Below, one piece after another: positions 31,709 through 51,143 of a DNA stretch of 64,000 bases. How positions within the stretch are numbered: position 1 is the stretch's first letter; each line of letters opens with the position of its first letter. Origin of the DNA: Nannocystis sp. ILAH1 (GTDB lineage: Bacteria; Myxococcota_A; Polyangia; Nannocystales; Nannocystaceae); NCBI RefSeq assembly GCF_026626585.1, contig NZ_JAPNKD010000014.1:221207-285206 (forward strand). The letters are read 5' to 3'. The position numbers and the translations under genes are program-made. The notes beneath the pieces were generated by a model. The model was not told where the DNA came from and searched no databases. It saw only the letters and a program-made list of their open reading frames with translations.

Positions 31709-32944
31709 ATGCTTAGAACATGGTATATTGGACATGTCCTTGGATTCATGGCTGTTGTGACAGGTTGCGATCCGAAGGACCCGGGGGTCACGGGCGGGAC
31801 GCTCAGCGCGGGGACGACCACGGGCGGGAGCGACAGCGACGGGACGTCGGGGGGCGGCGGGACTGACAGCGAGGGGACGACCGGCGTGCCGGAGACGACC
31901 GGCGGACCGGACGAGACGACCGACGATCCGGGCGACGCGACGACCGAGACGACATCGGGAGGGCACGACACCGACTCGGGGTCGACGCCGGAGGACTTCG
32001 CGTGCGAGGGCGGCGCGTGGCTGTTCGTCAATCCGGAGACCAGCGGCGCGGGCAAGGTGTCGCTCGCGGCCGACGGGCGGGCGCGGGTGTTCAGCGACGG
32101 TCTGACGCGCGAGTTCGACGCGGCAGGGACGCTGGTGGCGACATTGCCGATCCCGTCGGGTGCGATCTACTGGGACATCGACGCGGCGGGCAACGGCTAC
32201 GCGATGTTCCGCGACGAGGGCGGCGTGTCGCCGCGGAAGTGGCTGCGCAAGTTCGACCCGGCGGGGACGATGCTGTGGGAGAGCGACCTGGGACCGAGCG
32301 ATCAGGGCTTCTGGTCGGGCTACGGCGTAGCGATCGCGGTCGACGGGACGACGGTGTACAGCGACCGCGCTGCCGTCGGCGACGGGACGCGGATGGTCAA
32401 GCACGCGGCCGACGGGACGCTGCTGTGGGACCTCGAGGTCGCGGACCAACTCGAGGTGGCGGCGATCGGGTCGGCGGGCACGATGGTGGCGTTGGTGTGG
32501 AACGAGGGCGTCCGGCTGCTCGACCCGTCCGGCGAGGAGCTGTGGACGCGCCCGTGGGAGCTCTCGGTGCTCAGCACGGCGGCGATCGACGGCGCGGGCG
32601 CGGTGGTGGTCGGGGCTCAGATCGGGTCGTCGGGAGTGAGGATCGGGAAGTTCGCGGCCGACGGGACGCCGCTGTGGGACACGCATGTCGAGGACATGTG
32701 GAGCTTCGGCGACCTCGCGGTCAACGCGAGCGGCGAGATCGCGGTCGGCGGCCACCACAACAACGACACGCCGTTCCGCGGGATGGTGGCGCGGCTCGAC
32801 CCGTCCGGCGCGACGCTGGCGGCGCACCGCTGCGACAGCGGGTCATGGGAGGTCGACGTGGCGATCGACGACGCGGGGACGATCTTCGCGTCCGGCGCGG
32901 TCGACTTCGAGACCTATCACATGTACGTGACGGCGTACGAGTGA
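31709..32944 (+). CDS. lipoprotein with Thr/Gly-rich linker and beta-propeller-like repeats
   Basis: MAVVTGC lipobox; repeated DGT.LW / ADGTPLWD strand motifs. Confidence 0.55.
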   Translation: MLRTWYIGHVLGFMAVVTGCDPKDPGVTGGTLSAGTTTGGSDSDGTSGGGGTDSEGTTGVPETTGGPDETTDDPGDATTETTSGGHDTDSGSTPEDFACEGGAWLFVNPETSGAGKVSLAADGRARVFSDGLTREFDAAGTLVATLPIPSGAIYWDIDAAGNGYAMFRDEGGVSPRKWLRKFDPAGTMLWESDLGPSDQGFWSGYGVAIAVDGTTVYSDRAAVGDGTRMVKHAADGTLLWDLEVADQLEVAAIGSAGTMVALVWNEGVRLLDPSGEELWTRPWELSVLSTAAIDGAGAVVVGAQIGSSGVRIGKFAADGTPLWDTHVEDMWSFGDLAVNASGEIAVGGHHNNDTPFRGMVARLDPSGATLAAHRCDSGSWEVDVAIDDAGTIFASGAVDFETYHMYVTAYE

Positions 32945-32946: not shown

Positions 32947-33142
32947 CACAGGTCGAGGAGCTCGCGGCAGGCCGGCCGGCTGCCGCGAGCTGGCTCGAAG
33001 GACAGGTCGCGTGGGGCCGTCAGCGGCATGGCTGACGCCGCAGCGAAATGCCCTTCGGGACATCTGACATCGCAGGGCCGACGCCGCAGCGAGATGTCCT
33101 GAGGGACAGATATCGTCACAGGTCGAGGAGCTCGCGGCAGGC
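32947..33142. repeat. 26-bp exact direct repeat (CACAGGTCGAGGAGCTCGCGGCAGGC at 32947 and 33117) flanking a ~145-bp insert carrying REP-like motifs and an internal ~30-bp duplication
   Basis: read directly; second copy is the 3' end of the M3 peptidase CDS. Confidence 0.6.
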
Positions 33143-34924: not shown

Positions 34925-35471
34925 ACTGTGAGAAGGGCAGGACGTCGTCAGGCAGGCTCAGGCGTGCGGCGGACATCTCGGGGGCGCGCGCGGGAGGCTG
35001 GTCGAAAGGACAGGAGCTCGACGTGCAGGCTCCGAGTTCCGCGTGAGATGACGCCTGCAGCACGCGCGTGATGGTCGAAAGGACAGGTGTGCTTCGGGCA
35101 GAGTCCGAGTGCCCAGTGAGGTGACGTCCGAGGAGCGCGCGTGAGGCTGGTCGAGAGTACAGGTGTGCGTCGGCAGAGTCCGAGTTCCGAGTGAGGTGAC
35201 GTCGGCGAAGCGCGCGTGAGGCTGGGCGAGAGGACAGGAGGGTGCCGGGCAGAGTCCGAGGTCCGAGTGAGGTAGCGATGCGACCGGTACCTCGGCGGTC
35301 TCGAGAGCACGTGAGGCTGGTCGAAAGGACAGGCGCTGTGTCGGGCGGACTCCGGGTTCCGCGAGATGACGTCGCTAGAACGCGCGAGAGGCTGTTCGAA
35401 AGGACAGGACCTCAGGAACAGGTGAGGCGACGTCCTGAGGGCGCGCGTCTGAGGCTGGTCGAGAGGACAGG
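34925..35471. repeat. tandem array of ~7 degenerate ~77-bp units, each with conserved core GTGAGGCTGGTCGAAAGGACAGG
   Basis: unit starts near 34994, 35071, 35148, 35225, 35315, 35392, 35455; intergenic between M3 peptidase and TetR gene. Confidence 0.75.
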
Positions 35472-36095
35472 TCAGTCGGGGCGCAGGCCGCGGGACATCG
35501 CGCCGATGGTGAGCTCGATCTCGCGGTCGTCGTCCCACGGGTAGTCGGGCAGGATGGCCAGGCGCGTGATGATGTAGCCGCCCAGGGCGCTCATGAGGAG
35601 CCGCAGGACGGTCTCCGGGGGGTCGTTCCGGATCTGTCCGCGCGCCTGGTACTTGCGGATGACTGCCAGCAGCTCGGGGATGACGTGGCGGCCGATGTGG
35701 CGGAACACCATCGTCCGCAGCTCCGGGCTGAGCGGGACTTCTTGTAAGAAGATCCGCAGCGCCGGCACGTGCTCGCGCGCGACCGCGAGGCGGTTGCGCG
35801 CGAACTCCCGCAGGAATTCGGCGAAGTCGGGGTAGTCGGTGTCGATCAGCCGGTGCAGGTCGCGGAAGGCGATGGGCGCGAGCACCCGCTCGACGAACGG
35901 CTCGAGGATGTGGTCGAGCAGCAGCTGCTTGGTCTTGAAGTGGCGGAAGATCGTGCCCTCGGCGACGCCCGCCCGCCTGGCGATCTCGCTGGTCGCGGCG
36001 CCTCGAAAGCCGCGCTCCGCGATCACTTCGATCGCGGCGCGGACGATGCGCTCGACGCCGCGCACCGGCCCTGGATCGTCTTCGCGCGTGGCCAT
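35472..36095 (-). CDS. TetR family transcriptional regulator
   Basis: HTH SEIARRAGVAEGTIFRHFKTKQLLL; divergent from monooxygenase. Confidence 0.8.
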   Translation of the reverse strand: MATREDDPGPVRGVERIVRAAIEVIAERGFRGAATSEIARRAGVAEGTIFRHFKTKQLLLDHILEPFVERVLAPIAFRDLHRLIDTDYPDFAEFLREFARNRLAVAREHVPALRIFLQEVPLSPELRTMVFRHIGRHVIPELLAVIRKYQARGQIRNDPPETVLRLLMSALGGYIITRLAILPDYPWDDDREIELTIGAMSRGLRPD

Positions 36096-36187
36096 GACCC
36101 CGAGAGCTTGGCCTGAGTGAGCACTCACTTGCAACCGTCCTGGAGCCGTGGCACGGTGAGTGAGCACTCACTTGCAGGAGCGGAGCG

Positions 36188-37750
36188 ATGGCGTCGATCG
36201 ATGTGCTGGTGGCAGGAGCGGGGCCCACGGGCTTGACGATGGCGTGCGAGCTGCGGCGGTTCGGGCTGACGGTGCGGGTGGTCGATCCCGCGCCGCGCAC
36301 GACCGAGCACTCCAAGGCGCTGGTCGTCCACGCGCGCACGCGCGAGGTGTTCGAGGCGATGGGGCTGCGCGCGGCGGTCGAGGCCGAGGCCGAGGCGCTG
36401 ATGGCGGTGCAGCTGTACTTCGAGACGCAGCTGCTGGGGACGCTGGACGTCGCGCGGTTCGGGCCCGACGTGCCGCGGCCGGTGTTCCTCGATCAGAGCG
36501 CGACGGAGCGGATCCTGGCCGAGCACCTGGGGCACCTCGGCGGCGCGGTCGATCGCGGGCTGCGGCTGCTGTCGTTCCGCGACGAGGGCTCGCAGGTGGT
36601 GGCGACGATCGGTGGCGACGACGGTCGCACCGAGTCGGTGACTGCGCGCTGGCTGGTCGGCTGCGATGGTTCCCACAGCGCGGTGCGTCACGGCCTGGGT
36701 CTGCCGTTCGAAGGTTCTGCCTATGAGGACATGTTCGATCAGGCAGATCTGAAGATCCGCTGGGACCGCCCGCCAGGGCTCGGCTGCGGGTTTCTGCGGC
36801 CCGCGGGGCTGGTGGTGTTCGCTCCGTTGCCGCGCGGTCGCTATCGCATCATCGCCATGGGCGGCGACGGTCACGGGCCCGAGCCGACGCTCGAGATGTT
36901 CCAGAAGCTGGCCGACGAGCTGGTGCCCGGAGCGGTGCTGTACGACCCGGAGTGGATCCTGCGGTTCCGCCTGCACCACCGCATGGTGCCGAAGATGGGC
37001 GTGGGGTCGGTGTTCCTCGCCGGCGACGCGGCGCACATCCACAGCCCCGCCGGCGGCCAGGGGATGAACACGGGGATCCAGGACGCCTTCAACCTGGCGT
37101 GGAAGCTGGCGATGGTGGCCCGTGGCGCGGCTCGCCCCGAGCTGCTGGCGACGTACGACGCGGAGCGATTGCCGGTGGCGAGAAGGACGCTCGAGATGAC
37201 GGACCGCCTGTTCCGCGGCGCGACGAGCCGACGGACGATGATGCTGCGCAAGCTGCTCGTCAGCACGGGGCTGCGATCACGCGCGCTGCAGCAACGGATG
37301 GCGCGGCGCATGTCGCAGACGGGCGTGTCGTATAGCGAGTCGCCGGCGGTGATCGACGCTCGCAGCTGGCCGCGGCGCTCGCCGAAGGCCGGTGATCGAG
37401 CGCCGGCGGCGATGCTGCGCGCGGGCGATGCGACGGTGTCACTTCACGCGCTGGTGGCGAGCGAGGCGAAGATGACGCTCTTGCTCATGCACGGATCGTC
37501 GCGCTCGCAGGCGCTGGCGATCGCGGGTCGGGAGCTGGCGGAGAAGTGGGGCCGATCGCTGGTAGTTCGCGACCTGGTCCTGGGTACAGGCGACACGGAG
37601 ACTCTCGGCGATCCTTCGGGCGCAGTGGTCCGCGGGTGGAGAGTGCGCGCGCCTGAGCTCATGCTGCTCAGGCCCGACGGCCACATCGCAGTGCGAGCGC
37701 CGCTGGCTCGCATCGAGGTGCTGCGGGCCTACGCAGCGCGCTGGTTCTAG
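36188..37750 (+). CDS. FAD-dependent aromatic-ring monooxygenase (PheA/TfdB family)
   Basis: DVLVAGAGPTGL (GxGxxG), DG.HS, GDAAHIHSPAGGQGMNTGIQDA motifs. Confidence 0.8.
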   Translation: MASIDVLVAGAGPTGLTMACELRRFGLTVRVVDPAPRTTEHSKALVVHARTREVFEAMGLRAAVEAEAEALMAVQLYFETQLLGTLDVARFGPDVPRPVFLDQSATERILAEHLGHLGGAVDRGLRLLSFRDEGSQVVATIGGDDGRTESVTARWLVGCDGSHSAVRHGLGLPFEGSAYEDMFDQADLKIRWDRPPGLGCGFLRPAGLVVFAPLPRGRYRIIAMGGDGHGPEPTLEMFQKLADELVPGAVLYDPEWILRFRLHHRMVPKMGVGSVFLAGDAAHIHSPAGGQGMNTGIQDAFNLAWKLAMVARGAARPELLATYDAERLPVARRTLEMTDRLFRGATSRRTMMLRKLLVSTGLRSRALQQRMARRMSQTGVSYSESPAVIDARSWPRRSPKAGDRAPAAMLRAGDATVSLHALVASEAKMTLLLMHGSSRSQALAIAGRELAEKWGRSLVVRDLVLGTGDTETLGDPSGAVVRGWRVRAPELMLLRPDGHIAVRAPLARIEVLRAYAARWF

Positions 37751-37752
37751 CG

Positions 37753-38115
37753 CTACTTGTGGTTGAGGCCGAAGTACGCGGCGAGGAGGCCGAGCAGCGG
37801 CGCGACGAACCACAGCACGCGACCGGCGCCGGGCTTGCGAGCCACCAACGCGGGGGCGGCCGCAAGGCAGATCCACGCGAGCAACTTGGGGTGAACCCAG
37901 CCAGGCATGGCGCCGCCGTACTTCACCCCGAGCATGCCGAAGCCGGCCGCGACGATGAGCAACGTTCCCACGCCGTGCGTGGCAGCGACCAGCCCACGCG
38001 CGGGGTTGGTCTCACGAGTGCCACCGGCGATGCCGTGGAACGCGAGGCCGCCGAGGCCCATAAAGAGGAGGACGATGCCGAAGATGTGGAGGACCAGGAA
38101 GAGCTCGTAGGACAC
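37753..38115 (-). CDS. small membrane protein (4 TM)
   Basis: hydrophobic profile only. Confidence 0.4.
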   Translation of the reverse strand: MSYELFLVLHIFGIVLLFMGLGGLAFHGIAGGTRETNPARGLVAATHGVGTLLIVAAGFGMLGVKYGGAMPGWVHPKLLAWICLAAAPALVARKPGAGRVLWFVAPLLGLLAAYFGLNHK

Positions 38116-38191
38116 GGCGGCGCCGAGCCTCGCACGCCTCTGCGCGATTTGACAAGCTCGCGCCGGCCCGAAGGCTGATACACTCGCGGCG

Positions 38192-38974
38192 ATGTCGATC
38201 CAGGGCTACAGCGCATCGGAGTTCACCCACGAGGGCGTCACCAAGACGGTCTATCGGCGCGGGCGTGGCCCGGGGGTCGTCATCATCACCGAGGTCCCCG
38301 GCATCCACGAGGCGGTGGTCACGTTCGCCAACCTGGTGGCGGACGCGGGCTTCACCGTGGTCTTGCCCGACCTGTTCGGCGAGCCGATGAAGCCGGTGTC
38401 CGGCGGCTACCTCGCCAGCACGATGCTCAAGCTGTGCGTGAGCAAAGAGTTCAAGCTGCTCGCCGGCCAAGAGTCGAGCCCGATCACGAACTGGCTGCGC
38501 GGCCTGGCCCGCGCGCTGCACAAGGAGCTCGGCGGCAAGGGCGTCGGCGCGATCGGCATGTGCCTGACGGGGAACTTCGCGCTGTCGATGGCGGTCGAGC
38601 CGTCGCTGATGGCGCCGGTGATGTCGCAGCCGGCGCTGCCGCTGCCGGTTGGCAAGGCGCGCCGCGGTCAGCTGGCGATCGCGCCGGACGAGCTCGCCAC
38701 GGTGAAGCGGCGGGTCAAGGACGAGGGCCTCAAGGTGCTCGGCCTGTGCTTCACCCACGACGGCAAGGTCCCGCGCGAGCGGTTCGAGACGCTGAAGCGC
38801 GAGCTCAAGGAGGGCTTCGAGGCGATCGAGATCGACTCCGGCCCGGGCAACGCCCACGGGATCAAGCCGTCGGCCCACAGCGTGCTGACCGTCGACCTCG
38901 TGCGCGAGACCGGCCACCCGACCGAGCAGGCGCTGCAGCGCACGCTGTCGTTCCTGCGCGAGCGGCTGCAGTAG
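38192..38974 (+). CDS. dienelactone hydrolase family protein
   Basis: GAIGMCLTGNFA nucleophile elbow (Cys-type DLH), ~260 aa. Confidence 0.7.
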   Translation: MSIQGYSASEFTHEGVTKTVYRRGRGPGVVIITEVPGIHEAVVTFANLVADAGFTVVLPDLFGEPMKPVSGGYLASTMLKLCVSKEFKLLAGQESSPITNWLRGLARALHKELGGKGVGAIGMCLTGNFALSMAVEPSLMAPVMSQPALPLPVGKARRGQLAIAPDELATVKRRVKDEGLKVLGLCFTHDGKVPRERFETLKRELKEGFEAIEIDSGPGNAHGIKPSAHSVLTVDLVRETGHPTEQALQRTLSFLRERLQ

Positions 38975-38992
38975 ACCGCGGAGGGGAATGAA

Positions 38993-39064
38993 CAAGAGGG
39001 CATGTCCGTAAGGGCATGCCCTCTTGAACATGCCCGAAGGGGCATGTCCTTGGGGTCATGGCCC
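38993..39064. repeat. REP-like cluster: five RRRCATGYYY units incl. a 15-bp stem hairpin CAAGAGGGCATGTCC-GTAA-GGGCATGCCCTCTTG
   Basis: read directly; convergent gap between DLH and PepSY-TM genes. Confidence 0.7.
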
Positions 39065-39637
39065 GCCGGACAGGGTCACGTACAGCACGGGGACGGCGAT
39101 CCCGAGCAGGACGAGCACGCCGCCGCGGCCGACCAGGCCCTTGCGGCCGGGCAACATGAACAGGCCCGAGGCGGCGAGGAACAGCAGGAACACGGCGTAG
39201 CCGTCGGCGATGTAGGTCCAGGCCTTCTTGCCGCGGTTCAGGTGCAGCCAGTTGGCGACGCGCAGCAAGAGGCGCGGGCGCTGGCCGTCCTCGAGGACGA
39301 CGCCGCTGTCGAGGTCGACGTGGAGGGTGCTGCCGTCGAGGAGGATCGACAGCTCGCGCGCGTCGCTGCGGTAGACCTCGGTCGGCGGGTCTTGGATGGA
39401 GAGCTCGGCGAGGACCTTGTCGGCGGCGGCGCGGTCGTCCTCGGGCAGCGGCACGGCGACCTGGTGGCGCGCCTCGTAGTTGTCGAAGTTCGGGTCCCAG
39501 TCGGCGATGTGATTGACCGCGAGGCCCGACAGCGCGTAGACGAAGGTGAGGCCGACGGCGACGTAGCCTATGTCGCGGTGGAGGGCGCGCAGCCAGGGCC
39601 GCCAGCGGACCGGGCGCCGGCGCTCGGGCTCAGGCAT
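39056..39637 (-). CDS. PepSY-associated TM helix membrane protein
   Basis: three TM helices with PepSY_TM-like spacing; start overlaps stop of the MsrP-like gene. Confidence 0.55.
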   Translation of the reverse strand: MPEPERRRPVRWRPWLRALHRDIGYVAVGLTFVYALSGLAVNHIADWDPNFDNYEARHQVAVPLPEDDRAAADKVLAELSIQDPPTEVYRSDARELSILLDGSTLHVDLDSGVVLEDGQRPRLLLRVANWLHLNRGKKAWTYIADGYAVFLLFLAASGLFMLPGRKGLVGRGGVLVLLGIAVPVLYVTLSGGP

Positions 39638-40376
39638 AGCGCTCTTCCTTCCACGGGTCGGCGTGGTTGTGATAGCCGCGGGTCTCCCAGTAGCCGGGCT
39701 CGTCGCGGGCGACGAACTTGATGCCGGTCAGCCACTTGGTGCTCTTCCAGAAGTAGAGGCCCGGCACCATGGCGCGCACCGGGCTGCCGTGCGGGCGCGC
39801 GAGCGGCTTGCCGGCGTGGCGGTGGGCGACCAGGACATCGGGCGCGAGCGCCTCGGCGAGCAGGACGTTGGCGGTGTAGCCGTGGGCGCCCTCGAACACG
39901 ACGTGGCGCGCGGTCTTCTTGAGGCCTGCCTTTTCGGCCAGGTGACTGACGCGCACGCCCTTCCACGCCGCGCCGAGCAGCGACCAGCCGGTGACGCAGT
40001 GGACGTCGGCTTCGACCTCGGTCTGCGGCTCGGCGAGCAGGCCGTTCCAGTCGAGCTCGAACGGCTTCTCGACCTCGCCGTAGATCTTGATCTTGACGTC
40101 GGCGGGGCTCGGCGAGCCTGGCACGCCGCCCATCGGCCGCAGCGCCTCGAGCACGCGCTGGCCGGGCGGGAGGCGCGGGCGGCCGTCGGCGAGGGTCATG
40201 GCCTTGGCCTCGCGCGTGAGGCGGTCGTTCAGGACCCACAACATGCCGCCGCCCATGGCGGCGACGACGGTGCCGCTGGCGGCGCGGGCGAGGAAGTCGC
40301 GCCGGCTCATGGCGGCGGAGACGGCGGGAGGCAGCGGGCGAGAGGCGGACATCGTTCGACCTTCCGGCTCGGACAA
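39630..40376 (-). CDS. sulfite-oxidase-family molybdopterin oxidoreductase (MsrP/YedY-like)
   Basis: Tat signal SRRDFLARAASG; PGQ; VHCVTGWS molybdopterin-Cys block; ~250 aa. Confidence 0.75.
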   Translation of the reverse strand: MSEPEGRTMSASRPLPPAVSAAMSRRDFLARAASGTVVAAMGGGMLWVLNDRLTREAKAMTLADGRPRLPPGQRVLEALRPMGGVPGSPSPADVKIKIYGEVEKPFELDWNGLLAEPQTEVEADVHCVTGWSLLGAAWKGVRVSHLAEKAGLKKTARHVVFEGAHGYTANVLLAEALAPDVLVAHRHAGKPLARPHGSPVRAMVPGLYFWKSTKWLTGIKFVARDEPGYWETRGYHNHADPWKEERYA

Positions 40377-40395
40377 CGCGGGGCCCCGGCGAGTG

Positions 40396-40800
40396 TTACG
40401 TCGGGGGGCGGACCCGCAGCCGCAGAGTACCGTCGGCCGCCTGGGTGGTGTCGACGGCCAGGCCGGCGGCGCTCGCCGCGGCGCGCACGCGGGCGGTCGC
40501 CAGCGCCCGGGTGAGCGGGGCCACCAGGCGCTCGGCCAGGACTGCGCGATCGTGCTCGCCGCACACCAGGACGAAGGTGCTGCCGGCCGCGCGCAGGCCG
40601 AAATCGGCGACGGCCGTCAGCGTGCCGGCGGGCAGGCGCAGGTCGACCGGCTCGCCGGCGCACTCGAAGTTGCCCTCGAGCATGAGGCCGCCGGGGATCT
40701 CCGCGACCTCGGCGCGAAGCCCCAGCTCGCTCAGCGCGGCCTCCAAATCAGCCCGCGCGAGCTCGCGGGCGCCGAGGTCGAGGCGGACGTAGCGGCTCAT
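40396..40800 (-). CDS. hypothetical protein (134 aa)
   Basis: start overlaps stop of upstream small gene (ATGA). Confidence 0.4.
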   Translation of the reverse strand: MSRYVRLDLGARELARADLEAALSELGLRAEVAEIPGGLMLEGNFECAGEPVDLRLPAGTLTAVADFGLRAAGSTFVLVCGEHDRAVLAERLVAPLTRALATARVRAAASAAGLAVDTTQAADGTLRLRVRPPT

Positions 40801-40979
40801 GGCTTGCTGTCCTTCGGGGCATGGCACAAAGGACATGTCTCTTCGGCCTGGCGCACCAGCCAGCCGCAGCGCGCGCAGGCGGCCGCGGGGGTCGGCTCGG
40901 GCAGGTCGGCGACGGCGACAGGCTCGTCCAGCGCGGGCAGCTCGAGCTGCTGCTGGGCGAGGTTGCGCGCGCGGGACAC
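40797..40979 (-). CDS. small zinc-ribbon-like protein (60 aa, CxxC...CxxC)
   Basis: CARCGW...CPLCH. Confidence 0.4.
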   Translation of the reverse strand: MSRARNLAQQQLELPALDEPVAVADLPEPTPAAACARCGWLVRQAEETCPLCHAPKDSKP

Positions 40980-41076
40980 GGCCAGAGGCTGACCCGAGCG
41001 GGCCGGCCTGGCAAATTCTCGCCGGATGAGCGCGCCGGGGGCCGTGCAGGAGCGCGCTCAGGGCGAGCAGGACGGC

Positions 41077-41808
41077 TCAGGTGCGGCCGGCCGCGGGCTG
41101 GCCGGCCAGGCCCTCGGTCGCCCACAGGACGGCGAGGCGGCGCAGCTGGTGCGCGCTGTGGGCCCCGAGCTTGAGCTTGAGGTTGGACTGATGGGTCTCG
41201 ACGGTCTTGATCGAGATCTTGAGCGACTCGGCGATGTTGCGGGTGTCGTGCCCGCGGCCGAGCAGCTCGAACACCTCGAGCTCGCGGTCGCTGAGGTTCT
41301 CGATGCCGGTGCCGGCCCGCGGGCGCGAGACCATGGCGTTGAGCATCGTCTCGGCCAGCTGCTCGCTCACCGCCAGCTCGCCCTTCAGCGACTTGCGGAT
41401 GGCGCCGACGATCCGCTCGGCCGGCACGTGCTTCATCAGGTAGCCGTGCGCGCCGGCCCGCAGCACCCGCTCGCCGAACAGCTGCTCGTCGTGCATCGAC
41501 AGCACCAGCAGCTTGAGCTCGGGCCAGGCGGCGCGGATCTGCTTGATCAGATCGATGCCGCTGCCGGTCTTGAGCGAGAGGTCGACGACCGCGAGGTCGA
41601 CGGGCTTCTCGCGCAGGATCGCCAGGGCGGCCTCGGCGTCCTCGGCCTCACCGACGATCTCCAGGTCGGCCTCGGCTCCGAGGAGCTGCGACAGGCCGAG
41701 GCGGAAGATCGGGTGATCGTCGACGAGGAGGACCCGCGCCGGCGACGAGGGCTGGTCCGCGGGTCCTGTTCCTTGAGACAGGGGAGTGATCGGCGGCTGC
41801 ACGGTCAT
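41077..41808 (-). CDS. NarL/FixJ-family response regulator (REC + LuxR HTH)
   Basis: VLLVDDHP...D receiver, LSDRELEVFELLGRGHDTRNIAESL...KTVETH HTH; no kinase gene adjacent. Confidence 0.85.
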   Translation of the reverse strand: MTVQPPITPLSQGTGPADQPSSPARVLLVDDHPIFRLGLSQLLGAEADLEIVGEAEDAEAALAILREKPVDLAVVDLSLKTGSGIDLIKQIRAAWPELKLLVLSMHDEQLFGERVLRAGAHGYLMKHVPAERIVGAIRKSLKGELAVSEQLAETMLNAMVSRPRAGTGIENLSDRELEVFELLGRGHDTRNIAESLKISIKTVETHQSNLKLKLGAHSAHQLRRLAVLWATEGLAGQPAAGRT

Positions 41809-42087
41809 AATGAGCGCTCGTACAATATCCCATAGCCGTGATCGCAGTGTCACGCACCTGGAGTTCGCAGGATGGGTAGGACGTGAGCACGCAAATTCCC
41901 ACAAGGCTCGCAGCAGGTTTGGCGGTGCGAGTCACGTTCGCTCGCGACATCGTGCTCACTTGAATTGTGTTCAACAGCACACCGTGCGAACCGCTGTTCG
42001 CCGGCCATCCTCGGGCGATTGGCGCGGTTGTGCAGACATTGCGCGACCGCGGGCCACGCACCGTATTGAAACTTTAAGACAGGTTCT

Positions 42088-43584
42088 TCAAGCCCTGCGG
42101 GCCGCAGCGCTCGCCCACGCACGCAGGGCCGTGATTTCGCCGGCACGACTGCGACTCAACGGGATGGTCGCGGTGAGCGCGCGAGCGAGGTCGCGGCGCG
42201 CGAGCGGTCGCGACTCGGCGAACGCGTCGAGGCGAGCTTCCACGATCGCGCCCTCGATCTCGGCGCCCGAGAGTCCGTCGGCCGCGCGTACGAGGTCGAC
42301 GAGGTCGGGCAACGGATCAGCGAGGACCGGGGCGGCGCCCATGTGCGAGCGGGGCGCATGCTCGAGATGGATCTCCGCGATGGCAGCGCGTTCGTCCGCG
42401 TCGGGCAGGTCGACGAAGAAGATCTCGTCGAGACGGCCCCGACGTGTCAGCTCGGGCGGCAGGCGCGTGACCTGATTGGCGGTGGCGACCACGAACACCG
42501 GACGTCGGCGCTCCTGCAGCCACGTCAGCAGCCCGCCCAGCACTCGCGCCGCGGTGCCGCCGTCGCTCGCCGGGCCCTCGCTGCCGGCCAGGCCCTTGTC
42601 GAGCTCGTCGATCCACAGCGCGACCGGAGCGATGCGCTCGACCGTCGCGGTGACGCGGCGCAGGTTGGCCTCGCTCTCGCCGAGCGTGCCGCCGTAGAGC
42701 CGGCCCGGCTCCAGCCGCAGGAGGCCGAGGCCGAGCGCGTGGGCGCAGACGCGGGCGGCCAGGCTCTTGCCGCAGCCCTGCACGCCGACGAGCAGGACGC
42801 CGCGCGGGTCGGGGATCGCCGCGGCGCGGGCCTCGGGGCGGAGGGCGAGCGCGCGGCGGGCCAGCCACTGCTTGAGCTGCGCGAGGCCGCCGAGCATGTC
42901 TGAAGAGACAGGTTCGACGCGCTCGAGCAGGCCGCCGCGGCGCAGCAGCTCGGCCTTGCCGGCGCCCAGCTCGGCGAGCGCGGCGTCGTCGGCGGGGACG
43001 TGGGCGGCGCGGCGCAGCAGTCGACGGGCCTGGTGCTCGGACAGGCCGAGAGCGGCGTGGGCGAGCTGCGGCGCGCGACGGTCGAGCGCGGCGGCGGGGC
43101 CGGGGCGGCCGGCGATCCGCAGCTCGTCGACGAGGTCGGCCGCGAGGCCGGTGAGCTCGTCGGTGTCGGGCAGCTCGAGCTCCAGCAGCTCGAGCTCGGG
43201 GATGGCGACGAGCGCAGGCGCGAGGTCGCCGACGACGACGACCGCGGGACCGACGCTGCGCTGCGCGAGCTCGCGGAGGGCCCGCAGGGCGACGGGCTCG
43301 AGCGGGGGCGGATCGAGCAGCACCCACAGACCGGGATCGGGGTCGCGCAGGAGGCCGCGCAGGAGGTCGAGCAGCGGCTCGGGCGCGCCGAGGCCGTCGC
43401 GCCCGCCGGCGGCGCTCCAGGTGTGGACGGGCCAGTCGAGCCGCTCGCCTGTGTCCTCGCACAGCCGCAGCGCCCGCGCCTCGTCGACCGCGCGCAGGCC
43501 GAGGCCGCGGGCGCCGGCCTGCAGCGCCTCGCGCAGGCGGGTGCGCGCGCGCGCGAACGGAGTGTCTTTCGGGTCATGTCTCAC
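42088..43584 (-). CDS. AAA+ ATPase family protein
   Basis: Walker A GVQGCGKS, Walker B LWIDELD, sensor/arginine-finger region ATANQVTRLPPELTRRGRLDE; GTG start overlapping upstream stop. Confidence 0.75.
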   Translation of the reverse strand: MRHDPKDTPFARARTRLREALQAGARGLGLRAVDEARALRLCEDTGERLDWPVHTWSAAGGRDGLGAPEPLLDLLRGLLRDPDPGLWVLLDPPPLEPVALRALRELAQRSVGPAVVVVGDLAPALVAIPELELLELELPDTDELTGLAADLVDELRIAGRPGPAAALDRRAPQLAHAALGLSEHQARRLLRRAAHVPADDAALAELGAGKAELLRRGGLLERVEPVSSDMLGGLAQLKQWLARRALALRPEARAAAIPDPRGVLLVGVQGCGKSLAARVCAHALGLGLLRLEPGRLYGGTLGESEANLRRVTATVERIAPVALWIDELDKGLAGSEGPASDGGTAARVLGGLLTWLQERRRPVFVVATANQVTRLPPELTRRGRLDEIFFVDLPDADERAAIAEIHLEHAPRSHMGAAPVLADPLPDLVDLVRAADGLSGAEIEGAIVEARLDAFAESRPLARRDLARALTATIPLSRSRAGEITALRAWASAAARRA

Positions 43585-44324
43585 GGGGCATGTCCCTCAG
43601 ACCATGTCAGCCACGCGACCAGCAGGTGGCCCTGAGCGGCGACCGACACCGGGCCGTCGTCAGGGAAGCAGAAGCCGTTCAGCCACAGGCGGGCGCCGCG
43701 GAGGCGCGCGAGGCGGCCGTGGAGCAGCGCGAGGTCGGCGGCGCAGGCGCGGGCGAGCTCGGCGCGCGGGCGCGGCGGGATCGTGTCTGGCCAAAAGGAC
43801 AGGCGGTAGGCGGGCTTGCCGTCGACGCGGAGGACGTCGAGCCGGAGGGCGCCGCTCGGATCGGCGGCGACCAGCTGGGCGCGCCGCAGCAGGTCCGGGA
43901 ACGGCCGCGCTCGCGAGCCGCGGAAGTCGAGGGCGAAGAACACCGGCGCCGCGGCGGAGCCGGGCAGGGCGCGGGTGAGGCCGCGGGCGAGGGCCCGGGC
44001 GGCCGCCTCGAGCGCGCCGGGGACCTGCGGCAGGGTGAGCAGGCCGGCCACCGCGGCGGGGCTGCCTGCGGCCGCGAGGGCGGCCACGACGGCCCGCAGG
44101 CGGCCCGGGGCGCGCGGCGCCAGGGCCACCAGGCGGGCGACGGCGGGCTCGTCGAACTCGCCGCGGGCGAGCAGGTCGTCGAGCTCGCGCAGGGCGTCGT
44201 CGGCGTCGCCGGTGGCGGGCGGAGTGGGGACCAACCAGAGGTGCGGGCCGGCCTGGTCGCGGGCGCGGTCGAGGGCCGCGAGGGTGTCCGATGGGACAGG
44301 TCCGTCCGAGCGCCGGCCGCTCAC
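43581..44324 (-). CDS. hypothetical protein translationally coupled to the AAA+ ATPase
   Basis: 247 aa, no motif; GTGA junction. Confidence 0.45.
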   Translation of the reverse strand: MSGRRSDGPVPSDTLAALDRARDQAGPHLWLVPTPPATGDADDALRELDDLLARGEFDEPAVARLVALAPRAPGRLRAVVAALAAAGSPAAVAGLLTLPQVPGALEAAARALARGLTRALPGSAAAPVFFALDFRGSRARPFPDLLRRAQLVAADPSGALRLDVLRVDGKPAYRLSFWPDTIPPRPRAELARACAADLALLHGRLARLRGARLWLNGFCFPDDGPVSVAAQGHLLVAWLTWSEGHAP

Positions 44325-44325
44325 G

Positions 44326-44802
44326 TCACCGCTCCCGCATGGCCCTGTCGATCTCGCGCTTCTGCTCGCGCTCCTTGATCGAGGCCCGCTTGTCGTAGGT
44401 CTTCTTGCCGCGGCACAGCGCCATCTCGAGCTTGATCCGGCCGTTGCGGGCCAGCAGCGCGAGCGGGATCAGCGTGAGCCCGGCCTGGTCGACCGCCTCG
44501 GTCAGGTGGTCGAGCTCCTTGCGGTGCAGCAGCAGCTTGCGCGGGCGCAGCGGCAGGTGGTTGCGGTCGTGCGCCTGCGTGTACTCGCCGATGTGCGATT
44601 GATAGAGGAAGAGCTGGTCGCCCTGGAACTGGCAGTACGACTCGCCCAGGCTGGCGCGGCCGTCGCGGATCGACTTGACCTCGCTGCCCATGAGCGCGAG
44701 GCCGGCCTCGTAGCGCTCGAGGACCTCGTACTCGAAGGTGGCTCGGCGGTTCTGGACGAAGATGTGGCCGTCCTTCGTCGCGGTCTTGTCGGTCTTCTTC
44801 AC
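44326..44802 (-). CDS. smpB: SsrA-binding protein
   Basis: NRRATFEYEVLERYEAGLAL..GSEVKS and C-terminal basic tail. Confidence 0.9.
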   Translation of the reverse strand: MKKTDKTATKDGHIFVQNRRATFEYEVLERYEAGLALMGSEVKSIRDGRASLGESYCQFQGDQLFLYQSHIGEYTQAHDRNHLPLRPRKLLLHRKELDHLTEAVDQAGLTLIPLALLARNGRIKLEMALCRGKKTYDKRASIKEREQKREIDRAMRER

Positions 44803-44817
44803 GGCGGGGGTGGAAAG

Positions 44818-45498
44818 CTACAAAGCGGACCGCAGGAGGGCAAGCCCGGCGGCGCGGGCGGCCCCTGCGGCCCGTATGGCGGCGAGGCAGGCGGTCAGGG
44901 TGGCGCCGGTGGTGGTCACGTCGTCGACCACGAGGACGCGCCGGCCGACGAGCGACCGCCCGGCCCGCACGACGATCGCGCCCGCCAGGTTGTCGCGGCG
45001 CGCCGGACCGTCGAGCTCGCTCTGCGGCGGCGTGGCGCGCGTGCGCTGCAGGAGCCGCGGGTCGAGGCGGGCGCCGGTCGGGTGCTCGCGGGCGGCCCAG
45101 CGAGCCAGCAAGGCGGCCTGGTTGAAGCCGCGGGCGAGGGCGCGGCGCCAGTGCAGGGGCACCGGCGCGACGAGATCCCAGCCCTCGCGCCACACCGACG
45201 CGTGGGCGAGGAGCCGGCCCAGCGGCCCGGCGAGCTCGAGCTCGCCGACGAATTTGAGCCGCCGGACGGCCGCGGCGAGCGGGCCGTCATAAAGGAAGCA
45301 GGCCTCCACGTCGCCGACGCGCCGCGCGGCCGGGTCGAGCAGCGCGAGCTCGGGAGCGCAGCGACTGCACAGGGGCGGCATGCCCCCGGTGGGCGGGGCC
45401 CGGAGGAGGTGACGACAGGCGATGCACACCGGCGGCGCGAGGAAGTCGAGGACCACACGGAGAGGTCGTGCGAACCGCCGTCGTTGTTGCACGCGCAA
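44818..45498 (-). CDS. comF: ComF family protein (zinc ribbon + phosphoribosyltransferase domain)
   Basis: N-terminal CxxC...CxxC, C-terminal PRT loop VLVVDDVTTTGATL. Confidence 0.75.
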   Translation of the reverse strand: MRVQQRRRFARPLRVVLDFLAPPVCIACRHLLRAPPTGGMPPLCSRCAPELALLDPAARRVGDVEACFLYDGPLAAAVRRLKFVGELELAGPLGRLLAHASVWREGWDLVAPVPLHWRRALARGFNQAALLARWAAREHPTGARLDPRLLQRTRATPPQSELDGPARRDNLAGAIVVRAGRSLVGRRVLVVDDVTTTGATLTACLAAIRAAGAARAAGLALLRSAL

Positions 45499-45735
45499 GA
45501 GATCGCGCTGGAGATCGCGTCGAATTCGCAGCGCAAGAGGCGTGTGAAGATCATTTCGCCGTGCGATGCAAGCAGGCGGTCATGCGCACGATCGGCGCCG
45601 ACGCCGAGAAATTCGCCGGATCTGCGGCGATGCTCGCGATCCACGGCGGAGGAAGACGCACACATCGTCGCTGGGCGTGATCTGGCGTGCAAATCGCGGC
45701 AGTGGGCGGCACGCTAATTCCAAGGAGGCCGCGTC

Positions 45736-46263
45736 ATGCTCGCACACGATCTCGGATCTCTCAGCGTCGGAACGGTCTTGACGACTTCTACCTTCACGGT
45801 GAAGCCGGCCGATCTGACTGCGCATGTGGAGTCCAGCTTCTTGGGACAGGTAGTGGGTTGCGGAGAGGAGATGCTGTCGACCGGGAGCGTGTCCGGCGGC
45901 GGCGCGCCGGAGCCGTGGGGTCGAGTTTGTCCGCTGCCGGTCGCGTTCGGTCGGGCGCTGTCGGCCCTGGCCCACAGCGAGCCGTTCCGCGACGTCGCGC
46001 TCACGCTGCGCAGCATCAGCCGCGTGCGGCGCTTCGGTGAGGTGCTGGTGGGGGAGCCGCTGACTGCGATCGCGACGGTGCGCTTCCGCAGCGGCAGAGT
46101 ACCGAATGCGACGCACGTGACGCTCGCCGTAGAAGTTCACCGCGAGAGCCAACGCGGCCGCGTCGGCGCGACCGCGCTGAGCTTCGAGGTCGGGCTCGAG
46201 CTGCGATCGCTGGCGAGCGCCGCTGCAGAGGTGCAGATGGCTGGCGGCGCCGCCGCCGCGTGA
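45736..46263 (+). CDS. hypothetical protein, possible hotdog fold
   Basis: AAGGAGG 7 nt upstream of ATG; no firm motif. Confidence 0.4.
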   Translation: MLAHDLGSLSVGTVLTTSTFTVKPADLTAHVESSFLGQVVGCGEEMLSTGSVSGGGAPEPWGRVCPLPVAFGRALSALAHSEPFRDVALTLRSISRVRRFGEVLVGEPLTAIATVRFRSGRVPNATHVTLAVEVHRESQRGRVGATALSFEVGLELRSLASAAAEVQMAGGAAAA

Positions 46264-46557
46264 GGCCTGCTTTCGTGCCACTTTGGCCCGGTTCGCCGCG
46301 CCGCGTCATGGTTTTCGGACCATGTCTCAAGATGCAGTCCGTCGCACGCCGTCGCGGTCCTCTGCCGCACGCGACCTGCGCAGTGGCCCGCGGTCCGGTA
46401 GCGCCGCTGGGTGGTCTTTGAGACAGAGGCCGACGGGGCCTGCGCCAGGCTACGCGGCGCGTTTCCGCGCGAGGGCCGAGATAATCTTCTCGGCCACGAT
46501 CGGGTGCGCATCAGCTTGCCAAGGCGGATCCCCTGTGTGACCTTCAGTCTGCGGCGC

Positions 46558-47652
46558 ATGCTCTACGAGGACCGCTACAAGCTGATTTTGGCCGCGTGCC
46601 AGGACATTCGCCGGCATCGCGAGCAGGTCGCCAAGACGGTGATAGCGAGCCAGCTCCTCGACGCCCTCGACGTCGATGTCCCGAGCGACGCGCTGTTGTC
46701 CCACATCGTCGCCGAGTCGCTGTTGCGACGGATCGACCGCAACCTGCTGTCGGGGCGGAACTTGTACCTGCAAGCCGAGAAGCGGCCGCAGATCGACCTG
46801 TTCACGCTGCTGCAGCGGGCGATCCCGGCGGTGCCGCAGGGCTACGCGCTGGCCAACCAGTACCTCGTTCACGCGATGCGGCAGTCGAGCACGCCGGCGC
46901 TGCTCGAGATCGGGATCGGCAAGGGCCTGCAGATCGTCGCGCTGCTGCGGGCGCTCGCGCGCGATCCCGGCAAGATCGAGCGCCTCCGCGTGATCGCGCT
47001 GGAGCCGAACCGCACCGCCCTGAACGAGGGCGTGGCCGCGATCGACGAGGTCCGCGCCGAGCTGCCGTTCGACATCGAGATCTATCCGCTGGTCAAGCTG
47101 ATCGAGGTCTGCGAGGATGCCGACTACGCGCACTTCGAGGCGCTCGCCGAGGGGAGCTTGTCGATCAACGCGGCCTACACGCTGCACCACACCACGGGCC
47201 CCGACAGCGACGCGCGCACCCGCCTGCTGCGGCGGCTGCGGGCCCTGAGGCCGCGGGTGTTCACGCTGGTGGAGCCGAGCTCGGACCACGACACCGAGCA
47301 CCTGACCCGGCGCATGCATCACTGTTGGCAGCACTTCGCGACGGTGTTCGATCTGGTCGACCGCAGCGACGCGTCCCCGGACGAGAAGTTCGCCATCAAG
47401 GAGGGCTTCTTCGGCCGCGAGGTCCGCGACATCCTCGGCACCAGCGACGCCTTCCGCACCGAGCGTCACGAGACGCTCGAGTCGTGGCTGCTCCGGCTGA
47501 AGAAGTCGGGTTTCGTGCCGTACCCGGCGATCGACCTCGACGTCGATCTGCCCGAGTACTGCCGCTCCTCGGTCAGCTCCGGGCTCGTGCGGCTGTCCTA
47601 CCGCGGGGTGCCGATCATCGCGGTGTTCGCGTTCTCGGGGGAGGCGGGATGA
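46558..47652 (+). CDS. bacterial GRAS-domain protein (Rossmann/methyltransferase-like GRAS fold)
   Basis: LEIGIGKGLQIVALLRAL (VHIID-like block), RVIALEPN, C-terminal ERHETLESWLLRLKKSGF matching the plant GRAS RVERHE...AGF motif. Confidence 0.6.
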   Translation: MLYEDRYKLILAACQDIRRHREQVAKTVIASQLLDALDVDVPSDALLSHIVAESLLRRIDRNLLSGRNLYLQAEKRPQIDLFTLLQRAIPAVPQGYALANQYLVHAMRQSSTPALLEIGIGKGLQIVALLRALARDPGKIERLRVIALEPNRTALNEGVAAIDEVRAELPFDIEIYPLVKLIEVCEDADYAHFEALAEGSLSINAAYTLHHTTGPDSDARTRLLRRLRALRPRVFTLVEPSSDHDTEHLTRRMHHCWQHFATVFDLVDRSDASPDEKFAIKEGFFGREVRDILGTSDAFRTERHETLESWLLRLKKSGFVPYPAIDLDVDLPEYCRSSVSSGLVRLSYRGVPIIAVFAFSGEAG

Positions 47653-48191: not shown

Positions 48192-48192
48192 G

Positions 48193-50035: not shown

Positions 50036-50036
50036 C

Positions 50037-51125: not shown

Positions 51126-51143
51126 GTCACCCTCGGGCTGTTC

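Follow-up and report, generated by a model that had tools for sequence, protein, structure and literature searches.

The window analysed here, a stretch of 64 kb, contains a family of short palindromic repeats in which a 10-bp near-palindromic arm, GGRCATGYCC, is followed by 4 variable bases, 2-8 such units being joined head to tail into arrays whose 14-bp lattice is strict. An earlier note on this DNA had proposed a recurrent family of intergenic palindromes, and such a family is real, as seen in the excess of exact matches over expectation, in the phasing of the units and in their position just after stop codons. By analogy with repeats of the REP/BIME type, the arrays may act, with a probability of roughly 0.5, as symmetric 3'-end hairpins which protect mRNA ends and stop or slow read-through.

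Exact RRRCATGYYY decamers occur 22 times in the window, against 2.1 +/- 1.6 expected from dinucleotide-preserving shuffles (n = 100), none of which reached 22, and weight-matrix matches of at least 10 bits number 57 against 8.4 expected. Core-to-core distances in the window show sharp peaks at 14 and 28 bp. Moreover, strong matches in 722 kb of Nannocystis DNA were spaced by 14, 28, 42 and 56 bp in 295, 132, 108 and 49 cases, respectively, and, at spacings which depart from the lattice, by 13 bp four times and by 15 bp fewer than three times, the probability of a unit at +14 bp being 0.47 and that at other offsets at most 0.007. The window holds 23 arrays of at least two units, 15 of them outside ORFs, and strong copies are found at about 0.5 per kb; by extrapolation, there would be about 360 arrays per Mb, roughly 4,000 per Nannocystis genome. 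The favoured forms of the arm are GGGCATGTCC and its reverse complement GGACATGCCC, so that the arm has an orientation, and its GG/CC are 90-97% conserved across copies. The extended consensus proposed earlier is retained in its decamer core, but the 'YCGAARGG...' flank reduces to a weak tendency, since no consensus emerges from the 4-nt spacers (TCGC, the loop seen most often, is that of 6 hairpins in 134) and the array flanks show a weak purine/pyrimidine bias only, purine-rich on the 5' side and pyrimidine-rich on the 3' side.

The focal array lies between two convergent genes:

38192-38974, plus strand: gene on the left flank, encoding a member of the dienelactone hydrolase family (Pfam DLH at residues 25-257 of 260)
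38993-39077, no strand assigned: focal array, six units in 14-bp register at 38998, 39012, 39026, 39040, 39054 and, degenerate, 39068
39056-39637, minus strand: right flanking gene, PepSY_TM-like membrane protein (Pfam PepSY_TM_like_2, residues 16-187 of 193)

The stop codon of the plus-strand gene is 23 nt ahead of the first unit, and the array spans the entire 81-bp convergent gap and extends into the 3' end of the minus-strand gene. Four exact RRRCATGYYY decamers, 14 bp apart, occupy positions 38998-39049 (GGGCATGTCC gtaa GGGCATGCCC tctt GAACATGCCC gaag GGGCATGTCC), and the fifth unit, degenerate, GGTCATGGCC at 39054-39063, holds the stop codon of the minus-strand gene, which reads TCA on the plus strand at 39056-39058. 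Two hairpins are formed, one at 38993-39026 with a 15-bp stem and the loop GTAA, the other at 39028-39047 with an 8-bp stem and the loop GAAG. As RNA, the array is predicted to fold with -57.2 kcal/mol on the plus strand (z = -5.6) and with -49.7 kcal/mol on the minus strand (z = -5.4). At the orthologous site, N. pusilla has 7 units together with an insert of 27 nt, and N. punicea has 6 units, strong units numbering 5, 6 or 7 across the three genomes.

The other arrays and related copies in the window, given without strand, are the following:

939-962: two-unit array, 2 nt ahead of the called start of gene 965-1645 (plus strand)
4403-4426: two-unit array in a convergent gap, 23 nt past the stop codon of gene 4113-4379 (plus strand)
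6447-6526: six-unit array between two minus-strand genes, 15 nt past the stop of the upstream gene; fold z = -3.7
20969-20992: two-unit look-alike inside an epimerase gene, encoding GTWPNGHVPEG
22787-22850: palindrome with arms of about 22 bp and three strong units (22800-22837), filling a 40-bp convergent gap; fold -41.7 kcal/mol, z = -7.0
33035-33115: convergent gap with units in degenerate form, ATGCCC ttcg GGACATCTGA ... ATGTCC tgag GGACAGATAT
34986-35471: 75-bp minisatellite of about 7 copies, with a degenerate unit (cgaaaGGACAGG...) in each
40817-40840: two-unit array, identical in N. pusilla and diverged in N. punicea
42892-42915: two-unit copy inside an uninterrupted AAA-ATPase ORF (42088-43584, minus strand), conserved in N. 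punicea
43572-43609: three-unit array where two tandem genes meet; it overlaps the stop codon of gene 43581-44324 (minus strand)
51144-51175: hairpin of two units between convergent genes, its stem 14 bp long
51765-51788: two units with CCTG as core, at a closely spaced junction of tandem genes
53035-53114: six-unit array adjoining the stop codon of gene 53112-55196 (minus strand); central hairpin stem 17 bp, fold -49.2 kcal/mol, z = -10.9
55404-55427: two-unit array; the stop codon of kinase gene 55431-58676 (minus strand) is 3 nt away
59748-59852: unit pair at 59748 and four-unit array at 59801-59852, in a convergent gap
61099-61128: weak unit pair, GTTCATGTCC gaag GGACATGGTG, adjoining the start of gene 60279-61076 (minus strand)
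61986-62009: two-unit array between convergent genes, a methyltransferase gene at 61192-61959 (plus strand) and gene 62037-63680 (minus strand); minus-strand fold z = -3.4

All ten sites given as examples in the earlier note contain units, those at 33040-33113 and 61099-61128 in degenerate form. Its suggestion that the core also seeds a tandem array holds as well, in that degenerate units are embedded in the 75-bp minisatellite; the orthologous stretch in N. pusilla measures about 118 nt and reads GGACAGGACC tcag GGACATGGCC.

The placement of the units follows gene ends. With the window split by GC3-based gene calls, which leave about 15% as noncoding, 15 of the 22 exact decamers are noncoding, a density about 12-fold above that of coding DNA. 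A frequency set by base composition, or an equal density inside coding sequences, had been named beforehand as grounds for giving up the family; the noncoding density is instead well above the coding one, and the exact matches lie far above the compositional expectation. Within 60 nt past the stop codon, 20 of the 60 genes in the window have a unit of at least 8 bits; for gene 5' ends the count is 6 of 60, and for internal coding windows it is 18 of 547. The distance from stop codon to first unit peaks at 4, 9 and 14 nt, and arrays often overlap stop codons. Arrays of at least three units, in loci that were picked for a strict unit pair and are in part mutually orthologous, so that the counts are not fully independent, are distributed as 69 convergent, 36 tandem, 4 divergent and 12 in ORFs (which make up 84% of the DNA), in agreement with the enrichment between convergent genes and at gene ends claimed before; divergent gaps, those of promoters, are almost devoid of arrays. 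In the window, which is an unbiased sample, 6 of the 9 convergent gaps bear an array of at least two units, which makes the arrays a ready marker of gene and transcript ends in a genus where canonical terminators are undetectable.

The intergenic location is, in turn, the rule for most copies but not for all, as some lie inside ORFs. The motif is 3.7-fold over-represented in ORF interiors (63 against 17 expected), single in-ORF matches being near chance at low score thresholds. Rickettsia palindromic elements (RPE) are also palindromic repeats able to lie in frame within protein-coding genes; unlike them, the in-ORF Nannocystis copies are a small minority, and the epimerase copy at 20969-20992 is not an insertion, since GTWPNGHVPEG is conserved in distant homologues without an indel. 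In-ORF copies as insertions were therefore rejected for this copy, the sole one compared with homologues.

Neighbouring arms of opposite orientation give rise to hairpins whose stem measures 10-15 bp and whose loop measures 4 nt, so that the stems which had been attributed to adjacent units do exist and the family is both hairpin-capable and dispersed; often, a weak linker unit stands between two hairpins. Of the six window sites folded, five have z-scores between -3.4 and -10.9, and at the sixth (61960-62036) only the minus strand is in that range, the plus strand giving z = -0.4; the minus strand of 51126-51180 gives z = -2.3. Complementarity between neighbouring arms is 0.607, against 0.573 +/- 0.006 with shuffled partners, and compensated positions number 111, against 74 +/- 7 in shuffles. 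Covariation between neighbouring arms was seen at positions 3 and 8 (odds ratios 1.9 and 1.7), which are anti-correlated within one arm (odds ratio 0.33, p = 1e-10). Opposite-orientation neighbours are in excess, 36 and 35 against 22 +/- 4 expected, same-orientation ones being at expectation, and in 5-unit arrays the complementarity of units 4 and 5 exceeds that of all 2,000 shuffles, the middle unit being the weakest. Nevertheless, a general covariation test over 114 two-unit arrays was not significant (67.4% paired, 66.9% in shuffles), unlike the strict Watson-Crick shuffle tests, and most pairing arises because both arms match one near-palindromic consensus. The evidence for selection on arm pairing itself is moderate and mixed. 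Among co-directional gaps, 45 have the better fold on the sense strand and 43 on the antisense strand, and therefore nothing singles out RNA over DNA; the counts of G.U against A.C are uninformative on strand.

With regard to transcription, a G+C-rich hairpin directly past the gene, as in an intrinsic terminator, is present, but the stems are not followed by a U-tract (T frequency 3' of the stems 0.09-0.42), which speaks against canonical termination. A scan for canonical terminators over 20 kb (36001-56000) returned 3 sites against 4.1 expected, and the array at 51144-51175, the sole one with a T-rich tail in these 20 kb, is the only one to qualify as a hairpin-plus-T-run terminator. In another genome of more than 70% G+C, U-rich ends account for only about 25% of the transcript 3' ends mapped, while hairpins devoid of a U-tract still mark genuine ends (PMC8780764). 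These Streptomyces Term-seq hairpins share with the arrays G+C-rich stems devoid of a U-tract, a position at gene ends and a genomic G+C content of more than 70%; they are individually unique, whereas in Nannocystis one consensus is reused at thousands of sites.

Under the preferred reading, that of symmetric 3'-end hairpins, an array transcribed from either side would provide one or two very stable G+C-rich hairpins at the mRNA 3' end. Such hairpins would stand in the way of 3'-to-5' exonucleases; they would also make RNA polymerase pause or stop, or fix the end which Rho-dependent termination leaves behind, convergent neighbour genes being thereby insulated. The roles proposed for REP/BIME are mRNA 3'-end protection, transcription attenuation and protein binding, a function comparable to the one put forward here having been ascribed to them in enterobacteria. 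Roles of the arrays as terminator, stabiliser or nucleoid-protein site, as the earlier note had them, are putative. As a separate observation, certain arrays are situated at tight operon junctions or within ORFs, where termination would harm, which counts against a termination role.

The closest known analogues are the REP/BIME elements, and the functional analogy is right. The REP (or PU) and BIME repeats of Enterobacteria and Pseudomonas are likewise short extragenic palindromes in very many copies with stable hairpins, located after genes and between convergent genes, with clusters which alternate unit orientation and a copy number which varies between strains. The Nannocystis hairpins, of 24-34 nt, extragenic and in many copies, have the size and abundance of REPs (a 20-40-bp stem-loop), and the excess of opposite-orientation neighbours corresponds to the alternation of BIME clusters. 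REPs are further defined by a conserved GTAG or CGTC tetranucleotide at one end of the stem-loop (PMC3733652), and in the 134 well-paired Nannocystis hairpins GTAG was found once and CGTC four times, so that the REP tag is lacking. Moreover, unlike in REPs, each arm nearly complements itself, with an invariant CATG at its centre, the length of loops and linkers alike is exactly 4 nt, from which the strict 14-bp lattice follows, where BIMEs have defined linker motifs of varied length, conserved extra-PU linker motifs are replaced by spacers without consensus, and the host is a myxobacterium. The classification as REP/BIME-type made earlier can thus be kept as to analogy, clustering and position, but not as strict REP membership. 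The REPIN-RAYT system, whose defining feature is a single-copy RAYT (Y1 HUH transposase) gene flanked by the repeat (PMC5581495), is also made of paired hairpin-forming repeats, vertically inherited and persisting across related species; a tblastn search with an approximate E. coli RayT query over 790 kb, made up of the window and 96 loci and amounting to just a few percent of the genomes, yielded no match with E below 1. The 5-unit layout of hairpin, linker and hairpin resembles a REP doublet, which is indistinguishable from the Nannocystis lattice because any two arms can pair. The family permits asking whether REP-like behaviour can arise without the GTAG/RAYT machinery.

The family had been described as genome-specific; it is instead genus-wide, as Nannocystis, with at least five named species, accounts for 83 of the 96 stretches recovered when 185,579 species genomes were scanned. 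Beyond this genus only isolated pairs were found, and viral contigs were rejected as carriers, their four isolated pairs being at chance level. Related Nannocystaceae loci, with 57-72% protein identity, show few weak pairs, some of them after genes, and the array expansion is therefore specific to Nannocystis. Identity between the window and N. pusilla is about 95%, and for 31 of 34 arrays the orthologous site in another species has units, the flanks of site-matched arrays being 83-95% identical between species. None of these 34 comparisons gave a clean presence/absence polymorphism. Orthologous arrays differ mainly in unit number, with one clean case of a 28-bp (two-unit) indel, the site of 43572-43609 having exactly two extra units, as perfect tandem copies, in N. 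punicea. The arrays are thus inherited at fixed sites across species, gaining or losing units, and the MITE alternative, for which terminal inverted repeats, a target-site duplication and presence/absence polymorphism among relatives would be expected, was rejected, on a limited sample, since the differences concern unit number and not clean insertions. Between orthologous units, differences were counted at 1 of 172 core positions, 37 of 258 stem-flank positions and 50 of 172 spacer positions; the conservation of CATG, far beyond hairpin needs and partly inflated because detection and alignment were both anchored on CATG, hints at sequence-specific recognition or at homogenisation among copies.

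The same data bear on the possibility that the arrays are selfish or neutral palindromic minisatellites, devoid of host function and persisting where they are least harmful, after stops and in convergent gaps. Seeding would occur by copying or gene conversion, and changes in size by replication slippage, favoured by alternative hairpin registers. Convergent gaps are a classic safe haven for small repeats. The variation in unit number among close relatives (the two-unit indel in N. punicea, the three counts at the focal site), the higher-order minisatellite built on units and the over-representation of the motif within ORFs are all consistent with this explanation, as is the known vertical persistence of REPIN populations for millions of years (10.1101/2021.07.10.451892). 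Against it stand the sites kept across species with conserved stems and core and diverging loops, the 34 comparisons without clean polymorphism, and the enrichment of opposite-orientation neighbours, where plain tandem duplication predicts the reverse. On balance, we regard a purely selfish origin as a possible but rather unlikely explanation.

A further alternative takes the arrays as phased binding sites, in duplex or cruciform DNA, for a putative sequence-specific protein loaded at gene ends, the candidates being a nucleoid-associated protein, gyrase or another topoisomerase, an anti-collision or insulator factor, and a CATG methyltransferase or reader. Binding of gyrase or other topoisomerases has been proposed for BIMEs, and BIMEs are characterised by proteins that bind them, IHF, gyrase or Pol I. 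The near-invariant CATG between orthologous units, the conserved GG/CC, the strict lattice, the symmetric behaviour of both strands and the genus specificity of the motif would suit such a protein, although the anchored detection and alignment inflate part of the CATG conservation. Moreover, a palindrome bound by a dimer predicts self-complementary arms, while positions 3 and 8 are anti-correlated within the arm and complementary to the neighbour instead; the dimer-binding model is disfavoured on this account, and the binding-site explanation as a whole appears distinctly improbable. A speculative combination, to which we attach an equally low probability, is that of a lineage-specific gene-end punctuation, and not a RAYT-driven REP, in which a dedicated protein would recognise the stem with its invariant CATG core and, by means of the phased arrays, stop or insulate convergent transcription or manage its supercoiling. 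The putative protein would bind cruciform or duplex DNA, or the nascent-RNA hairpin; selection would keep the arrays in place and slippage would resize them.

The uptake sequences DUS (Neisseria) and USS (Haemophilus) are also genus-specific 10-12-mers, highly over-represented and present inside genes too, with frequent inverted pairs forming hairpins after genes, often terminator-like. A similar signal, that is, a genus-specific 10-mer favoured by the transformation machinery, accumulating genome-wide and tolerated as inverted pairs doubling as 3' hairpins, would account for the number of strong copies per kb, for the inverted pairs after genes and for the enrichment in ORF interiors, and natural transformation has been reported in Myxococcus xanthus. 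Nevertheless, the density outside ORFs is roughly 10-fold higher, DUS/USS are neither palindromic nor in phased multi-unit arrays, and we know of no uptake sequence which is near-palindromic or arranged in strictly phased runs of up to 8 units, all of which renders this explanation very improbable. As for an origin by chance, through the base composition or codon usage of a genome with 72% G+C, the near-chance frequency of single in-ORF matches at low thresholds and one in-ORF pair that is a coding coincidence are outweighed by the excess of exact decamers, the +14-bp phasing and the restriction to isolated pairs outside Nannocystis and in viral contigs, so that it can practically be dismissed.

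In myxobacteria, with genomes of 11-13 Mb, small-repeat biology has hardly been described. A search of the whole window against Rfam gave no match at gathering scores, and a literature search, within the library covered, returned no paper on this repeat family or on REPs in myxobacteria. The variation in unit number between close relatives could serve for strain typing, and short bidirectional 3' elements would be useful parts in the engineering of Nannocystis, whose natural products are under study. The decamer RRRCATGYYY is also the p53 half-site, which was set aside as a coincidence, the literature search with the decamer having led to p53 response-element papers only.

The focal array, in a convergent gap at 38993-39077, consists of six units, each a 10-bp near-palindromic arm (GGRCATGYCC) followed by four variable bases, the last unit being degenerate. 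Four of them are exact RRRCATGYYY decamers spaced by exactly 14 bp (38998-39049, reading GGGCATGTCC gtaa GGGCATGCCC tctt GAACATGCCC gaag GGGCATGTCC), and the fifth, GGTCATGGCC at 39054-39063, includes the stop codon of the adjoining minus-strand gene. The excess of this decamer, on which the earlier note had based its REP-like family, was confirmed. In fact, 22 exact matches were found in the window, against 2.1 ± 1.6 in dinucleotide-preserving shuffles, a weight matrix derived from these 22 gave 57 matches of at least 10 bits (8.4 expected), and core-to-core distances showed peaks at 14 and 28 bp only. Since the window is 72% G+C, genes were called by third-codon-position G+C, a number of calls being verified with Pfam; on this basis, the non-coding 15% of the window contains 15 of the 22 exact matches, and 15 of the 23 arrays of at least two units lie outside ORFs. 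The motif is therefore more frequent than composition would predict and less dense in coding DNA, and a chance product of composition is excluded.

The anatomy of the arrays was established on 722 kb of Nannocystis DNA, comprising the window and 83 blocks of 8 kb picked for containing one strict unit pair, a choice which biases absolute densities but not array shape. Strong units were spaced by 14, 28, 42 and 56 bp 295, 132, 108 and 49 times, respectively, with spacings of 13 bp occurring 4 times and of 15 bp fewer than 3 times; the probability of finding the next strong unit at +14 bp was 0.47, and at any other offset at most 0.007. Arrays hold 2 to 8 units, the arm reads G(0.97) G(0.90) R C A T G Y C(0.90) C(0.93), and the four bases after it have no consensus. 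The common element, gaag-GGGCATGTCC-nnnn-GGACATGCCC-cttc, folds into a perfect hairpin whose stem measures 10-14 bp, and many convergent gaps hold two such hairpins flanking a weaker middle unit. Six sites of the window were folded as RNA, and at five of them one strand or both had a z-score between -3.4 and -10.9; values of -2.3 and -0.4 were obtained for the minus strand of 51126-51180 and the plus strand of 61960-62036, respectively.

As regards placement, 69 arrays of at least three units were located in convergent, 36 in co-directional and 4 in divergent gaps, only 12 being found within called ORFs, which make up 84% of the DNA. Arrays start a few bases from the stop codon; counted from the first base of this codon, the first strong unit lies preferentially at 4, 9 and 14 nt, offsets that let TGA form part of a consensus unit or spacer (tgaa, CATGA, TGACATG), so that the lattice includes the end of many genes. 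The final codons of many genes are encoded by degenerate units, such as the ...TLSGGP* of gene 39056-39637 (39054-39063). In the window, an unbiased sample, arrays of two or more units occur in six of the nine convergent gaps, and 20 of 60 genes have a unit within 60 nt past the stop codon, the corresponding figures being 6 of 60 for the 5' ends of genes and 18 of 547 for internal segments of coding sequence. The 81-bp gap wholly occupied by the focal array separates a dienelactone-hydrolase-family gene from a PepSY_TM-like membrane-protein gene, two unrelated housekeeping-type genes according to Pfam. A position atypical for the family is that of the unit pair GAACATGGTA tatt GGACATGTCC (31716-31739), in an unusually A+T-rich patch of a divergent gap, 17 nt upstream of the plus-strand gene 31757-32944.

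The hairpin between neighbouring arms, rather than the 10-bp palindrome, is favoured by several tests as the unit that matters, although the evidence is not clean. Complementarity between neighbours at the six variable stem positions was 0.607, against 0.573 ± 0.006 with partners shuffled, and in 111 cases (74 ± 7 expected) the neighbour fully compensated a non-self-complementary arm position, although some arrays are orthologous to each other and such counts are not independent. Between neighbours, co-variation was seen at positions 3 and 8 (odds ratios of 1.9 and 1.7), which within one arm are anti-correlated (about 0.45 overall; 0.33, p = 1e-10, in arrays of at least three units), so the arm is oriented, being either GGGCATGTCC or its complement GGACATGCCC. 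Neighbours in opposite orientation numbered 36 and 35, against 22 ± 4 expected, and those in the same orientation were as expected; in five-unit arrays, none of 2,000 shuffles reached the value of pair 4-5, and for pairs 2-3 and 3-4 the value was under expectation. A simple site for a dimeric DNA-binding protein is disfavoured by this pattern. In the 114 two-unit arrays, however, a general test for covariation gave no excess (67.4% paired cells, against 66.9% in shuffles), so that most of the pairing is explained by the match of both arms to a single near-palindromic consensus.

To the observed anatomy, placement and conservation of the arrays we attach, as the best-supported reading and with a probability of about one half, the role of REP/BIME-like 3'-end hairpin elements, from which we infer a function at the RNA level: protecting mRNA ends and insulating convergent neighbours. 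Whichever side transcription comes from, the mRNA 3' end would fold into one or two hairpins of high stability, which could block 3'-to-5' exonucleases, and which could also pause or stop the polymerase, or define the transcript end that Rho-dependent termination leaves, thereby insulating convergent neighbours. Against such a role stand the absence of a U-tract, the sense strand of co-directional gaps folding no better than the antisense (45 vs 43), a CATG core more conserved than the hairpin alone requires, and the location of some copies at tight operon junctions or within ORFs. A precedent is provided by Streptomyces avermitilis (>70% G+C), whose mapped 3' ends are U-rich in only about one case in four (PMC8780764).

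The arrays are old, fixed in position and unstable in length. Units were present at the same site of another species in 31 of 34 array-to-orthologue comparisons, none of which showed a clean presence/absence, and a MITE was rejected on this insertion-polymorphism criterion. Across three genomes, the strong units of the focal array number 5, 6 or 7, and the array at 43572 has exactly two extra units, perfect tandem copies, in N. punicea. Orthologous units differ at 1 of 172 positions in the CATG core, 37 of 258 in the stem flanks and 50 of 172 in the spacers, this contrast being somewhat inflated by an alignment anchored on CATG; moreover, one hairpin pair carries a compensated U-A to C-G change between N. 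exedens and N. bainbridge. At 34986-35471, between two minus-strand genes, lies a minisatellite with a 75-bp repeat and about 7 copies, each copy with one degenerate unit of the 14-bp family (cgaaaGGACAGG...), so that the earlier link of a 77-bp array to the motif was right in substance. Its N. pusilla orthologue (7240-7420 of the scanned stretch L008) is only about 118 nt long and reads GGACAGGACC tcag GGACATGGCC; copy number thus differs between genomes about 95% identical.

Such instability would be expected of selfish or neutral palindromic minisatellites, as would the over-representation in ORF interiors (63 matches of at least 12 bits, against 17 ± 3 on codon shuffling), part of which may stem from errors in the crude gene calls. 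Unit pairs in uninterrupted ORFs include:

42892-42915, AAA-ATPase linker, conserved in N. punicea
58113-58136, Ser/Thr kinase domain
50250-50273, N-terminal part of a cyclase

The pair at 20969-20992 in an epimerase gene was rejected as an insertion, being a coding look-alike whose product, GTWPNGHVPEG, is kept without indel in distant homologues. The conserved position and stem, together with the enrichment of oppositely oriented neighbours, nevertheless make a purely selfish or neutral origin unlikely. Somewhat less probable still are phased protein-binding sites, which would account for the invariant core, the strict lattice and the strand symmetry, but not for the anti-correlation within arms.

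The family is not genome-specific, as the earlier note had proposed, but genus-wide. A scan for GGRCATGYCCNNNNGGRCATGYCC in one genome per species (185,579 species) returned at least 96 stretches, and 83 of the 96 matches listed were from Nannocystis, including N. exedens, N. pusilla, N. punicea, N. bainbridge, N. radixulma and metagenome-assembled genomes; the other 13 among those listed each hold one isolated pair and no further arrays, as do 4 viral contigs. The window itself is 95.5% identical to N. pusilla Na p29 across 7.3 kb and 91% to N. punicea FL3 across 8 kb, and the best protein matches are likewise from Nannocystis. Syntenic loci of more distant Nannocystaceae (57-72% protein identity) showed a few weak pairs only, some of them after genes, and the expansion therefore belongs to Nannocystis. 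A genus-specific 10-mer in inverted pairs after genes could recall a DNA-uptake sequence, but the palindromic arm and phased units render this most improbable. Two stretches, L036 (266-289) and L079 (87-110), each with a strict unit pair, are contigs of the 'Actinomycetota' MAG KR13_S3.mb.130 (G+C 0.69-0.70); since two matches within one unrelated genome are unexpected by chance, they may be mis-binned Nannocystis-like DNA.

The comparison with REP/BIME elements stands for behaviour, but the defining features were either absent or not detected. The GTAG/CGTC tag that defines REPs (PMC3733652) is virtually missing, GTAG occurring at 1 and CGTC at 4 of 134 Nannocystis hairpins, and the conserved linker motifs of BIMEs are lacking. 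Of the features defining REPIN-RAYT systems (PMC5581495), no RAYT homologue was found by tblastn with an approximate E. coli query in 790 kb of sampled DNA, a small fraction of the genomes. No Rfam family matched the arrays when the whole window was searched, and the literature search retrieved no description of this family, nor of REPs in myxobacteria. A canonical intrinsic terminator was rejected, the hairpins having no U-tract. The region 36001-56000 is virtually devoid of standard E. coli-type signals, with 3 hairpin-plus-T-run terminators (4.1 in shuffled sequence, hence no excess) and only one sigma-70-like promoter match.

Other repeats were observed in the window. A large tandem repeat (9215-9800; period 132 bp, 4.6 copies, 60-bp sub-period) has no confident gene call and lies between the minus-strand genes 7857-9269 and 10007-10354, and a 95-bp repeat (18023-18214; 2 copies, 87% matches) lies within a 487-bp non-coding gap. 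Two identical 20-nt sites, TGAGTGAGCACTCACTTGCA (36114-36133 and 36157-36176), 43 bp apart and each with an AGTGAG/CTCACT inverted repeat, lie in the gap from which a TetR-family gene (35472-36065, minus strand) and an FAD-dependent monooxygenase gene (36188-37750, plus strand) diverge, and look like putative TetR operators. Finally, a local repeat, GGGCCAGGTGCGGACTTCGGGCGG and its relatives (4564-4699; 2-3 copies in a 370-bp convergent gap), has the half-unit GGNCAGGT in common with the main family.
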